Assembly: GCA_043802485.1 (NCBI GenBank)
Contig: JAZDKZ010000006.1
Span: 32,001 to 96,000 of the forward strand
DNA: 64,000 bases
Source of the DNA: Candidatus Aenigmatarchaeota archaeon
GTDB lineage: Archaea; Aenigmatarchaeota; Aenigmatarchaeia; Aenigmatarchaeales; Aenigmatarchaeaceae
Direction: 5' to 3'
The position numbers are program-made. This document shows, piece by piece, positions 21,001 through 30,000 of this stretch (the first letter of the stretch is position 1; each line of letters starts with the position of its first letter).

Positions 21001-24000
21001 TTTGAAATCTTTAAATAGATTTACGGCACCAATACTGGTTCTAGAGGTGATAAAAAATGAAAAATGACAAGATAGAAAACGGGCTTCCTGAAATTGAAAA
21101 AAAGAAAGAAGGCGTTTATAAGAACAAACTCGAAGAATCTTGGTACTTTATACATTCCTGAAAATAATTCTACCAGTATGTGTTCTGCTTCTTACCCAAC
21201 CTCAACCTGATAAAGTTGAGCAGGTAGAACTTGAAGGCCTTTCTGTGGAAAGAGTCCTCGAACCTTCTTGCTGAGATGGGCATGTAGAGCTCTCGGAAGA
21301 ATCTTACTCTTCCATATTTCCTTATTCTTGTGCTTAGTTCGAAATCCTCGAGGAAATTGACCTTGAACGGGTGCTTTAGCAGTTTGCTTCTCTTGAAGGC
21401 GCAATTGGAGCCGCAGATGCACGGATACTTGAAGGCCGATGTGGCTTCAAGGAAAAGGTCGCCCCACACCTTGAGGCCTATCTTGGTTTTGGTGTTGGCA
21501 TCATAGGGAATTATGGGTCCGTAGACGCCGATGTTGTTGTCTATCAGCTTCTCTATATTTTCCACCCAGTTCTCTGGGGGTCTGGAGTCTGCGTCGCAAT
21601 AAGCCACTATGTCGCCTTTTGCTGACTTGCAGCCGAGGTTCCTCGCGTCTGCTATGCCCTTCTTATTGTCCTTGATAATCCTGTCCGCGTACTTTTTTGC
21701 TATCTTTATTGTCTTGTCTTTGGAGTGGCCGTCGACAACAATTATCTCCGGTTTCACTGTCTGATTCTTTAGGCACTCTAGGCACTTTTTGATGTACCTT
21801 TCCTCGTTCTTGGTGCAGACAACTACAGAGACTGACATAAGAAAGATATTTAAAATATGTCAATATATAATTGATTTATGCCTCGATAACTCAGTTGGTT
21901 AGAGTGCCTCACTTGTAATGAGGATGTCGGGGGTTCGAGTCCCTCTCGAGGCTTTTTAATTTCAGAAAGCCTTTTAAACCAGTCTTTGCAATATAGAATT
22001 ATGAAAATGGTATTGACAATGATATTAACTGTTATACTTTTTGTCATAGGAATAGCTCTTGTGGTGATGAACCCTTTGAACGCCTTGGCGATAACATTCG
22101 GTATGTTCCTTGTGGCGGTTTCGATACTGAATGTTGCTATACAGGTGTACTTTCCTTCTCAACCGTTGAGCACAGTTGAATTGAGGGTCGTCCAGCCGGA
22201 GAAAAAAGCCAAGAAAAAACCTGTCAAAAGGGTCGCAAAAGGGAAAAAGAGCAGGAAAAGATAAACATTCGACAAATAGTAAACTTTATAAGCATTAAAA
22301 ATCTATAAATGAAATACCTTTTAAGGTTTTACTCTATTTTTAGAGTAATCTATATGGTGATGAATTGGAAAAGGAGTATAGTGTTCTAAAGCACGTGTTA
22401 GTTCCGAAACATACTATTCTTAATGATGAAGAAAAAAAGGAACTTTTTGACAAAATGAAGATAAAATCCAGAAACCTGCCCAAGATATCCAACACAGATC
22501 CTGTCGTAAAGGAGCTTGGTGCGAAAGAGGGCGATGTTCTAATGATAGACAGAAAGTCTCCAGTTTCCAAAAGCACAACCTACTACAGGGTTGTTGTCAA
22601 GAAAAAGAGAGCGTGATTTTATGAATGATGTTTTAAACGCCTTCAAAAAAGATGTCGGTTTTGTCAGATTCCAGATTAACAGCTACAACAACTTTGTTGA
22701 CAACCGTCTGCAGAAGATAATCGAAGAGATTGGGGAGATAAGACCAGAGGTTCCCGAGATTGGGGAACTGGTGATAAAATTCGGCAAAGTCTCCATCGGC
22801 AGGCCTTGCGTCAAGGAGGCAGAGGGAGGTATCAGGGAGATAATGCCTACTGAGGCAAGGTTAAGGGACTTTTCCTATACTGCCCCGGTTTACCTTGAGG
22901 CAACGCCTATTGTCAACAAGGTGGAGCAGGAGCCTGTGAGCGTTCTTCTGGCTGAAATACCGATCATGGTCAAATCCAAATTATGCCCGTTGAGCAAGAT
23001 GAACAGCCAGGAGCTGGAGGAAATCGGAGAGGACCCAGACGATACTGGGGGCTATTTTATCATCAACGGAACAGAAAGAGTGCTTGTCCTGATAGAGGAG
23101 ATAGCGCCCAACAGGATGATTCTTGAGAAGCAGAAAGTGAGCAACTATACCGAGATGATAAGGATAAACTCGGAGAGGAACGGCTTTATCCAGAGGCATA
23201 CGATAGACAGGAAGAACGACGGTTCTATTTACATTTCATTCGCAAACATAAGGAGACTGCCGATTGTTGTTCTGCTAAAGCTTCTTGGCCTGGAAAAGGA
23301 CAAGGAGATAATCGATGGGCTGGAAGACGAAAAGATAATCAACGAGTTTTATGTTAATTTGTACGAGACTGACGTGCAGACAAAGGCCGATGCCATGGAG
23401 TTTGTGGGCAAGCACCTGAAGATTGTCCAGAAGGAATACAGAAAGCAGAGGGTCGAGCAGATAATAAGCAAGTACCTGCTGCCTCATCTGGGACAGGACG
23501 CAAAGAACAAGATTGACAAGGCAAACTACTTGTTAAAGGCGATAAGGAAGATTATTGACTTTTCTCTGGGGAACATACCAGAAGACGATTTGGATCATTA
23601 TGGTAACAAGAGGATTAAATTGTCAGGTGACTTGCTTGAATTATTGTTCAGGTCAATCCTTGTCGGAAGATGGGGTTTGATTGCAAGGATAAAGTACAAC
23701 TATCAGAAGATGGCCAAAAGAGGCAAGCTGCCTCCTGTTCAAACAATAGTCGAGGCTAATGTTGTTACAAACCAGCTGGCGTCTGCAATGGCAACTGGTG
23801 CATGGATTGGCGGAAGGACAGGCGTCTCGCAGAGGCTGGAAAGGAAAAATTATATTGATACGCTTTCTCACTTGAGATTGGTTCTCTCTCCTCTGACATC
23901 AACACAGGAGCACTTTGAGGCAAGAGAGCTGCACCCGACACACTGGCAGAGGTTCTGCCCGGCAGAAACTCCAGAAGGTCCGACAATCGGTCTGAGAAAG

Positions 24001-27000: not shown

Positions 27001-30000
27001 GTCCTTTTCAACAGGCAGCCTTCTCTTCACAGAATGTCCATAATGGCTCACAAGGTAAAGGTGACTCCTTGGAGAACCTTTACCCTGAACTTGTGCACAT
27101 GCCCTCCTTACAATGCTGATTTCGACGGCGACGAGATGAACCTCCATGTCCTTCAGACAGAGGAGGCGCAGACCGAGGCAAAGCTCTTGATGAGCGTGCA
27201 GAACCATATCAGGTCGCCAAGGTTCGGAGGTCCTATCATAGGATGCAGAGAGGACCACATATCAGGATGCTACATGCTTACTCACAAGGACACTGTGATG
27301 AGCAGGGAGGATGCGTTCAAACTGCTTTCCGATGTCGGTGTGTTTGCCGACCTTCCAAAGAAGAAGACGTTTACAGGCAAGGAAGTATTCAGTTATCTTC
27401 TGCCAAAGGATTTGTATGTGGAATTCAAGTCAAAGGCATGCGGCTGTGACGATTGTGTCAAGGGAACATGTCCGAATGATGGTTATGTTGTTATCAAAGG
27501 AGGAAACCTGAAAAGAGGCCTGATAGACTCCAAGGCAATAAGCTCAGAGCACGGCAAGCTTATCGATGTCATTGAAAAAGAATTCGGCTGCGATGTTGCG
27601 CATGAGTTCATAGACAGGGTCTCTTCAATAGGTATAAAGTACTTGGACAGGACTGGTTTCACAATCGGTCTTGATGATATCGATTTGAAAAAAGATGTAA
27701 CAGAAAAAATAGCCAAGTATATTGAAAAGGCAAAGATGGAAGTTAACGAGTTGATTGAAATGTACAGGCAGGGAAAGATAGAATTGCTGCCAGGGAGCGA
27801 TGCCAAGGAGAGTCTGGAAGCGCACATACTCATGACGCTCTCAAAGCCGACAGAGGCTGCTGAAAAGTTAATAAAGGAATCAATAGGGGACAACTGCGCT
27901 ATTGCCATGGCAAAGTCTGGAGCAAGAGCATCCATAACACACATGATACAGCTCTCGGCTTTCACTGGTCAGGCTAGGATACTAGGAGAGAGAGTCCACA
28001 GAGGTTTCAGGGACAGGACGCTGCCTCACTTTATGGTCGGAGACCTTTCCCCAAGAGCTCACGGTTTTTCGTCAAACAGCTTCAAATCAGGTTTAAATCC
28101 TTTCGAGTTCTTCTTTGATGTAGTGTCGGGAAGGGAATCGCTTATGGACAAATCTTTGAGGACAAGGCATAGCGGTTACTTGGAAAGAAGGCTCATGAAC
28201 GCCTTGCAGGACCTGGTAGTCGATTATAATTATGTAGTCAAGGACAACCATAACATAATAATCCAGTTCACTGCAGGAGAGGACAAGATAGACCCTGCAA
28301 AGTCTGACTGGGGAACCCTTGACATAAAGTCAATCATACAGTCCGTGATTAGGTGATAATGTGAAATTGAAAGAAGCAGAAGCAATACTACCCCTGAAGA
28401 TTATTGACGACTTGGATAGAAACTTCAAGGAGTTCAAGCTTACTAGCGCTCAGAAGGAAAAGGTTATCAAGAAAACTGTAGAGCTGTACAAGCAGAGCTG
28501 CTACGACCCTGGCGAGGCTATTGGAGTTGTCGCAGCCCAGTCCATTTCTGAGCCAGCAACGCAGATGACCATGAGGACTTTCCACATAGCAGGGGCTGCA
28601 GAGATTAAAGTGACACTTGGTCTGCCAAGGCTTGTGGAGATATTTGATGCAAGAAGAGTCCCAAAGACACCTACCATGACAGTCTACATGAACAGCAGAC
28701 ATAACACGATGGAAAAGGCCCAAAAGGTCGCGTTCGACATACAGGAAACGCTTCTCGAGGATATTGCCATTGAGCCTGCTGTTGATTTGTTGAACATGAG
28801 GATTGAGATTCAGCTTGATGAGAAGATGCTAAAGGAAAAGAAGCTGACAGTAAAGAAAGTCGCAGAGAACCTGATGGAGAACACGAGGGTGAAGAAGATA
28901 AAGCTGAGCACAGGAAAGGACAGCCTTTTGATAAAGTCGGAGGATGAAGACATCACAATCAAAAAGTTGCAAAAGATAAAGTCAAAGGTTCTGAAAACCC
29001 ACATAAAGGGCGTCAAGAAGGTTACCGAGGTGAGGGTTTCCAACAAGGATGGCATGTGGGTTATAACAACTCTGGGCAGCAACCTTGCCGATGTACTGGA
29101 AGTGGAAGGAGTTGACACCACCAGGACAACATGCAACAACATACATGAGATAATAAAGGTCCTTGGCGTAGAGGCTACAAGGCAGTCCATAGTAGACAAT
29201 GTGATGGAAACCATGGAGGAAGGTGGATTGGATGTTGATGTTCGCCATGTTTTGTTGGTGGCAGACATGATGACATCGACAGGAACGATAAAGGCCATAG
29301 GCAGGTATGGAATTGCCGGTGCCAAGGGTTCTGTGCTGGCAAGGGCCAATTTCGAGGAGACCATGAAGCACCTGACAAAGGCTGCGGTAAGCGCCGAGGT
29401 CGACAATCTGGATTCTATAATAGAAAACGTCATGATAAACCAGGTCGTGCCCGTAGGCACGGGCATGTTCGATCTGGTATTCAAACCTAAAAAGTGATTT
29501 TATGAAAGAACTGAAAGATGCATTGAAAGAGAAAAAGGTCATCATGGGCACTGAGAGGACTGTGAAATGCCTAAAGTCTGGTGACGCAAGGGTCGTCGTG
29601 GTCGCAAGCAATTGTCCGGACGACGTGAAAAGCGACCTGGAAAAGTACACAAAACTTTCTGGCGTAAAACTAGAGAACTTTGACGGAACAGCAAAGCAGT
29701 TGGGCGTGTTCTGCGGTAAACCGTTTTCAATAGCAAGCCTAGCAATAGTGAAATAAATGAGAAACTTCGACAACAGCACCATACAACTGATAACAGCTTT
29801 TGAGAACATAGCCCAAACCGAGGTCAGGGACTGTGTCTGTTCTGATACTATCTATTTTCTTGTGAATCCTGGCAAGATGGCCAGGACCATAGGCAAGAAC
29901 GGCTACAACATAAAGAGTGCCGAGAAGATGCTCGGCAGGCAGATAAAGGTCTTTGAGTGGAGCGAGGACGAGAACCAGTTCATAAAGAACCTGATACCAA

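Follow-up and report, generated by a model that had tools for sequence, protein, structure and literature searches.

Organization of the RNA polymerase locus

We analysed a window of 64,000 nucleotides from genome G000, a Candidatus Aenigmatarchaeota archaeon. The RNA polymerase cluster in this window encodes subunits B (Rpo2) and A′ (Rpo1N) in a single open reading frame. The features of the locus are the following.

22365..22616, + strand: rpoH (Rpo5), which opens the RNA polymerase cluster; Pfam PF01191 (E 6e-29) and NCBIfam NF007129; the start codon is not fixed
22621..28356, + strand: fused rpoB::rpoA′ frame, 1911 residues, ATG at 22621, stop-free
22621..25875, + strand: Rpo2 (unsplit B) part, residues 1–1085; Pfam Rpb2_1–7, end placed by register with unfused kin
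25849..25905, + strand: predicted junction β-hairpin, residues 1077–1095; AlphaFold2 model, best Foldseek match 3QQC_A
25876..25878, + strand: former-stop codon AGT, Ser1086; register with unfused kin
25879..28356, + strand: Rpo1N (A′) part, residues 1087–1911; Pfam, NCBIfam and register with unfused kin
28361..29497, + strand: rpoA′′ (Rpo1C), separate gene, 378 residues; TIGR02389 over cut-off
29502..29756, + strand: L7Ae/L30e-family ribosomal protein, 3′ of the cluster; Pfam PF01248
29757..30155, + strand: KH-domain NusA-like protein, 3′ of the cluster; KH domains (Pfam)

Upstream of the ATG the fused frame stays open back to a TTG at 22591. Pfam domains Rpb2_1 to Rpb2_7 occupy residues 14–1081, and Rpb1_1 to Rpb1_5 follow up to residue 1889. 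A first-pass annotation had described a complete B joined to A′ in one frame, with A′′ as its own gene, and both points hold. The boundary it gave (B to residue 1084, A′ from 1085) is revised by the register: B ends at Gly1085, Ser1086 takes the place of the former stop, and Leu1087 (CTG) that of the former A′ start methionine. Archaeal B may also be split into B′′ and B′ genes, and NCBIfam models exist for B and for the split forms. The archaeal B model spans residues 2–1084. The A′ profile scores over its cut-off and reaches residue 1910; TIGR03670 is over its cut-off and NF006335 just under (1376 bits vs 1402). The catalytic motif NADFDGD lies at residue 1498 (27112–27132), in the A′ part, and the clamp zinc motifs are represented by CxxC at residues 1030, 1048, 1140, 1180 and 1198; one zinc-site cysteine is replaced by aspartate. 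No second, separate B or A′ gene is found in G000, where B, A′ and A′′ are each single copy and the partner subunits Rpo5, Rpo1C, Rpo4, Rpo6 and Rpo7 are present. The fused frame is an archaeal-type Rpo2 plus Rpo1N, and a variant, since B and A′ do not come from separate genes.

The junction within one clade

The fused junction is free of stop codons in 11 of the 42 genomes of the order, as had been claimed for the whole frame; full length is visible in only seven, contig ends cutting B in G006 and G013 and A′ in G004 and G008. All 11 belong to four genera of one family (f1), as first described. They form one clade (support 1.00; present in all 10 bootstrap trees), and their junction length does not vary, which bears out fixation in a single sub-clade. 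The stop-free 21-nt register is identical in all of them, and in nine the former-stop position reads AAA, AGA or AGG (Lys or Arg). A single join in their common ancestor would account for all 11.

In the unfused genomes of the order the stop-to-start spacing ranges from a 4-nt overlap (ATGA, −4 nt) to about 420 nt, wider than the 0–171 nt first reported; G028, whose contig breaks off at the junction, does not enter this range, nor do G018 and G040, for which no match was obtained. The unfused relative in exact register is G014 (Gly-TAA-Met) rather than G025, as had been proposed, which is 6 nt longer. Two single-base routes could lead to the join. Starting from the G014 register, TAA would become AAA or TGA would become AGA; alternatively, G015, G016 and G017 show a +1 register, from which a one-base deletion would give the same Gly-Lys-Met product. 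The origin first suggested, in which in-frame genes lose the stop that divides them, is one of two candidate founding mutations that the data cannot separate. G025 and G014 are both rejected as the direct precursor, since the sister group of the fused clade is G020, in which a small ORF sits between B and A′.

Structure and spacing of the junction

An AlphaFold2 model of residues 1001–1392 places the junction in a predicted β-hairpin, with strand 1077–1084, a two-residue turn of Gly1085 and Ser1086, and strand 1087–1095. The block pLDDT of this region is 84–91. The top Foldseek match is 3QQC_A, with an rmsd of 2.5 Å over 365 columns, and 3QQC is the only match spanning the junction among 60 PDB sequences listed; the model may lean on it, since 3QQC is in the PDB. 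This structure is an engineered B–A′–A′′ clamp of Pyrococcus furiosus, which folded and bound Spt4/5 (PMC3094117). It shares with the natural fusion the link from the B end to the A′ start. It differs in being a man-made domain fragment and not a whole enzyme, in a linker two residues longer, and in containing part of A′′.

We measured junction spacing from Pro1078 to residue 1093. It is 42–54 nt in all 63 fusions that we found in the phylum. In unfused Aenigmatarchaeota the median is 50 nt, and 105 of 159 genomes lie at or below 54 nt; in other archaea the median is 78 nt and the minimum 59 nt, with 0 of 67 at or below 54 nt. Nineteen unfused genomes are both in frame and at ≤54 nt, so short spacing is not sufficient for fusion. 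The short linkers could instead stem from trimming after fusion. Gene fusions are reported to favour close termini (PMC4009401).

Recurrence of the fusion

The fused junction occurs in 63 of the 227 Aenigmatarchaeota genomes examined, and 159 of 222 assessable genomes are unfused; families f27–f40 were sampled for in-frame cases only. With five genomes undetermined at the junction and four short ones left out, 218 entered a tree built without the junction (FastTree gene trees, only 10 bootstraps). The junction state changes 18 times on this tree, vs a shuffled mean of 54.7. If reversal is disallowed there are 19 gains, and 17–19 in the 10 bootstrap trees. An unfused root fits better than a fused one (lnL −67.3 vs −73.9). 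The fitted loss rate is zero in 11 of 11 trees and the gain-only model is best, but ahead of equal rates by just 1.9–3.8 log units. The fusion is not one event: it was gained about 17–19 separate times in the sampled phylum. It appears to revert rarely or never, and the direction would be one-way; G083 and G069/G070, nested among fused relatives, could be reversals.

The scope first given is too narrow. Full B::A′ fusion has further origins of its own in G171 and in G193/G195/G305; B′::A′ fusions have many separate origins. Among the 120 database proteins listed, whose source names support assignment to Aenigmatarchaeota, 27 have 1909–1928 residues, or 26 without the protein of G000 itself, in line with the at least 26 counted earlier; five of them come from other clades. 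Of the 120, 88 have 1420–1461 residues, in line with the earlier count of more than 80 B′::A′ proteins of about 1430 residues.

Outside the phylum, two other DPANN phyla gave 392 and 287 matched genomes, none with read-through among the matches listed; 591 and 372 lower-ranked matches lie outside the DPANN count, and long-linker fusions could be missed there. A stop is present in every one of 17 long-frame cases from these two phyla. Of 120 loci surveyed, including three labelled Aenigmatarchaeota and a few non-archaeal records, one is cut; the 119 that could be assessed, almost all from archaea, each have a stop within 140 codons and do not read through, and the same criterion recovers 63 of 63 known fusions. 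P0250, labelled Woesearchaeota at source, does not add a case from outside the phylum, as it groups inside family f16 in a tree that holds Aenigmatarchaeota only.

Origin and consequences of the fusion

We consider it likely that this is an inherited B–A′ fusion in an otherwise ordinary polymerase, in which close, pairing chain ends and a short spacer allow single-base joins, gained about 17–19 times and rarely or never reverting. In the clamp, the final B strand would pair with the opening A′ strand even before fusion. Aenigmatarchaeota combine short ends on both subunits with a short spacer, so that a single-base change at the stop could join B and A′ through a turn of 2–6 residues, and the two touching strands would become one β-hairpin. 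The join probably recurs because the two termini are in contact beforehand and the genes lie unusually near each other. After fusion the A′ start codon would decay, making return rare or absent. The product would be translated as one uncleaved chain; the fusion would be nearly neutral, and the biochemistry is probably unchanged.

An adaptive fusion, selected at each origin as a tether that fixes 1:1 stoichiometry or helps clamp assembly in genome-reduced cells, seems improbable to us. The number of gains with no reversal required, the junction length held at 42–54 nt and the lack of fusions in two other DPANN phyla among the matches listed would suit it. However, the unfused majority includes the 19 genomes in frame at suitable distance, and start-codon decay by itself accounts for the one-way change. 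Compensation for a lost small subunit is rejected, with matches to Rpo4, Rpo6 and Rpo7 in 11 of 11 fused genomes of the order.

It is very unlikely that the DNA is fused and two chains are still made by cleavage or internal initiation. An ATG is kept at the old A′ start in 3 of the 11 genomes (G004, G006 and G011), but is gone in the other eight, with AAA in G002. Across the phylum, 154 of 159 unfused genomes have an ATG no more than 10 codons from the A′ start, vs 17 of 63 fused ones. The two-residue turn also sits within the predicted hairpin, and no linker or intein is present. A sequencing or assembly artefact deleting a stop is refuted: although the genomes are metagenome assemblies, 63 of them carry diverged junction sequences, 120 listed database proteins span the junction, and contigs from three runs in two studies (one of the runs possibly being the source sample itself) bridge it without indels and with synonymous or conservative changes.

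Relation to known polymerase fusions

Natural β–β′ (rpoB–rpoC) fusions are described in Helicobacteraceae and Wolbachia (PMC7483510, citing Zakharova 1999; Lane and Darst 2010). As in these, an in-frame join that follows operon order links the C-terminus of the second-largest subunit to the N-terminus of the largest. Unlike in these, the join in Aenigmatarchaeota takes in just the A′ half of the largest subunit and A′′ stays separate; the protein is archaeal-type, scoring 394 vs a cut-off of 5372 and 387 vs 4632 with the bacterial families NF007172 and NF011417; and there are about 17–19 origins in one phylum, with a two-residue turn. The B–A′ fusion is the archaeal counterpart of the Helicobacter and Wolbachia fusion; it would work like it but does not belong to those bacterial families.

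Archaea also differ in having A or split A′/A′′, with a secondary A′–A′′ fusion in Pacearchaeota (PMC5484517). Like B–A′, the known archaeal splits and re-fusions alter the distribution of the two large subunits over genes, but they stay within one ancestral subunit, whereas B–A′ joins two different ones. The passages of PMC5484517 on such events mention no B–A′ join, and we found no description of an archaeal one in the literature searched, mostly at title and abstract level. The same source calls these events rare and usable as phylogenetic characters; repeated fusion runs against that view. Even in the most conserved enzyme of transcription, the limits between subunits can shift repeatedly in one lineage, although the bacterial precedent and the likely unaltered biochemistry limit the surprise. 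Chain-end spacing offers a testable reason why one phylum fuses and its neighbours do not, and reconstitution work on tethered archaeal polymerases could take the natural junctions as templates.

A candidate triple fusion is the database protein P0037, with B, A′ and A′′ in one chain of 2214 residues. It was not found in viral contigs and has no close relative among 51 matches; metagenome contigs gave one weak 40-residue match. One further reading is doubtful: the B tail and A′ head would have been trimmed in an ancestor, which put a single-chain core one mutation away, and some 20 lineages would have taken that step, none going back, under selection for clamp assembly. If it were true, P0037 would show that the one-chain end point is viable. 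Among the database proteins listed, annotation and marker-gene pipelines name the fused proteins as B alone or A′ alone.

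The fused gene and its surroundings

In the source genome (769 kb, 89% complete), subunits B (Rpo2) and A' (Rpo1N) are encoded by a single uninterrupted ORF with full sets of Rpb2 and Rpb1 domains, and A'' (Rpo1C) is a separate gene, both as described in the first-pass annotation. The catalytic NADFDGD motif is at residue 1498. No second copy of B, A' or A'' was found elsewhere in this 89% complete genome.

Features of the locus (Pfam and NCBIfam unless one is named)
22365-22616: rpoH, upstream neighbour
22621-28356, + strand: fused rpoB::rpoA' ORF, ATG start, 1911 codons, stop-free
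residues 14-1081 of the fused ORF: Rpb2 domains 1-7 (Pfam)
residues 2-1084: archaeal B profile (NCBIfam)
reaching residue 1889: Rpb1 domains 1-5 (Pfam)
ending at residue 1910: archaeal A' profile (NCBIfam)
28361-29497: separate A'' gene, downstream neighbour
after the A'' gene: L7Ae/L30e-family gene, then NusA-like gene

At residues 1140-1153, a usually invariant Cys of the clamp zinc site is replaced by Asp in six of the order's 11 fused genomes and in three unfused genomes of family f15. At residues 846-857, the Gly after HGQK is Ser in each of the 11 fused genomes, as it is in 12 unfused relatives.

The fusion is not an artefact

A 300-aa junction query matched 40 of the 42 genomes of the order and was stop-free in 11, from four genera of one family (f1), in agreement with the earlier count. 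Junction length is identical across all 11; seven are visible at full length and four are interrupted by contig ends. Contigs of three public runs, from groundwater and biofilm metagenomes of two studies, bridge the junction without indels and with only synonymous or conservative differences; one run may be the sample of the source genome. All 120 database proteins listed cover the query entirely: 27 of 1909-1928 aa, 88 of 1420-1461 aa and five others, in line with the at least 26 and more than 80 (about 1430 aa) noted before. Where given, their source names are subunit B or subunit A'. The single junction length, the bridging contigs and the 120 listed proteins rule out a sequencing or assembly artefact, and the B-A' fusion is real.

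Anatomy of the join

In unfused relatives B ends in Ser-Gly-stop and A' starts with Met-Ile. Unfused genome G014 has Gly-TAA-Met in exactly the register of the fusions. B therefore used to end at G1085, the stop codon stood where S1086 is now, and L1087 marks the former A' start; the boundary had previously been placed at 1084/1085. The old stop position is AAA, AGA or AGG in nine of the 11, and the ATG of A' is kept in three. Across the phylum, 154 of 159 unfused genomes have an ATG no more than 10 codons from the A' start, against 17 of 63 fused ones. The fusion had been ascribed to loss of a stop between in-frame genes. A substitution at the stop in the G014 register fits this; starting from the +1 register, as in G015, G016 and G017, deletion of one base would lead to an identical product and fits the sequences equally well.

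An AlphaFold2 model of residues 1001-1392, made with 63 fused sequences, has a mean pLDDT of 73.9. At the junction it predicts two strands (1077-1084 and 1087-1095) joined by a turn of two residues, with pLDDT 84-91 for the block. The top Foldseek match is 3QQC_A (rmsd 2.5 Å, 365 columns), which is also the best sequence match spanning the junction. 3QQC is an engineered Pyrococcus clamp in which B 1053-1115 was linked to A' 3-318 through a short linker, and which folded and bound Spt4/5 (PMC3094117). The predicted hairpin and this fold match suggest that the natural join is compatible with the clamp, although the prediction may lean on 3QQC itself.

Repeated origin within the phylum

The phylum search matched 346 of 371 genomes, with many further stop-free junctions. 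Among 227 examined, 63 are fused, 159 unfused and five undetermined. Fusions outside the order are mostly B'::A' (B' being one half of a split B) of about 1430 aa; unsplit B is joined to A' in G171, G193, G195 and G305. In a FastTree phylogeny of B' and A' from 218 genomes, junction excluded, the 11 are recovered as a single clade (support 1.00) whose sister is the unfused G020, and they stay together in 10 of 10 bootstrap trees, so that the proposed fixation in one sub-clade holds. Fusion state requires 18 changes on this tree, against a mean of 54.7 and a minimum of 48 in 200 shuffles. A fused root would take 45 fissions; 19 gains suffice if there is no reversal (17-19 in the bootstrap trees). 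In a two-state model the loss rate is zero in all 11 trees, with an advantage over equal rates of just 1.9-3.8 log units. The fusion may have been reversed in G083 and in G069/G070. A'' is separate in all 43 assessable fused genomes, a further 20 being not assessable.

P0258, a database protein of 1924 aa, has unsplit B fused to A', and its branch lies close to families f11 and f13, in whose genomes B' occupies a separate frame; this suggests B''-B' re-fusion or retention as well. Locus L215 (G228) joins A' and A'' (1179 aa) with B separate, the sole such case in 125 assessable Aenigmatarchaeota loci.

Spacing of the two genes

Spacing was counted in nucleotides between fixed points in the two junction strands, P1078 to residue 1093. 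All 63 fusions fall at 42-54 nt. Unfused Aenigmatarchaeota have a median of 50 nt (105 of 159 at or below 54) and other archaea a median of 78 and a minimum of 59 (none of 67 at or below 54), with positions extrapolated from tblastn hits and related genomes not independent. None of 28 in-frame Aenigmatarchaeota with longer spacing is fused. We infer from these sequences that short ends of B and A' came before fusion; with them already in place, a single base change would be enough for a tight hairpin. Fusions in general favour close termini (PMC4009401), in agreement with this view. Loss of a helper subunit as the cause was rejected, since Rpo4, Rpo6 and Rpo7 are kept in all 11.

Several f2, f5 and f21 genomes have B-A' gaps of 200-730 nt, and in G020 a 57-aa ORF lies between B and A' (L397). 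Two Rpo6-like genes are present in the source genome (C6:149379-149531 and C4:67891-68031); two matches were also found in fused G011, G012, G005 and G117, and in G285, G295, G307, G339 and G343.

Distribution and relation to known fusions

No fusion was found in two other phyla: in that of a Woesearchaeota genome, 392 of 401 genomes matched, with a stop in all 47 in-frame joined matches listed, and in that of a Micrarchaeota genome, 287 of 301 matched, with a stop in all 58 listed. Seventeen more long-frame matches fetched from both searches all have the stop. Eight of the genomes counted in these two phyla are marked unpublished (G769, G616, G695, G733, G706, G617, G803 and G972); none is fused, and leaving them out alters the totals only. 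A motif scan gave 120 loci, nearly all of them archaeal and drawn from across the domain; 119 have a stop at the B end and one is cut. Within the samples searched the fusion is restricted to Aenigmatarchaeota, although long-linker fusions among unlisted matches could escape.

A join of the same kind, second-largest subunit to largest, is known in Helicobacteraceae and Wolbachia (PMC7483510), and NCBIfam has models for it. The window protein works like these fusions but lies outside their families. Da Cunha et al. 2017 describe polymerase split and fusion events as rare, and the only fusion named in the accessible portion is an A'-A'' re-fusion in Pacearchaeota (PMC5484517). In the main text of a 2026 survey on the evolution of archaeal polymerases (PMC13257274) no word begins with 'fus'. 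We found no description of an archaeal B-A' fusion in the mostly open-access literature searched. The fusion itself is a mild change; more interest attaches to its repeated origin within a single phylum and to the spacing rule.

P0037 (2214 aa, a singleton on an 18.7-kb Logan contig) carries B, A' and A'' in one chain. Its best scores come from archaeal profiles, yet far below cut-off, and it has ~27% identity to the window fused protein; it is possibly a polymerase core in one chain, from a virus or a highly divergent cell.

Elsewhere in the window, 3814-10116 holds isoprenoid pathway genes (polyprenyl synthetase, an amino-acid-kinase-family gene and HMG-CoA synthase), and 42882-43751 is a stand-alone ORF with a LAGLIDADG-like domain, adjoining Pus10. 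This very small genome also carries a two-component cluster, at 57462-63167, which comprises a PAS-domain protein, an NMT1-like binding protein, a HAMP-HisKA histidine kinase and a response regulator receiver.
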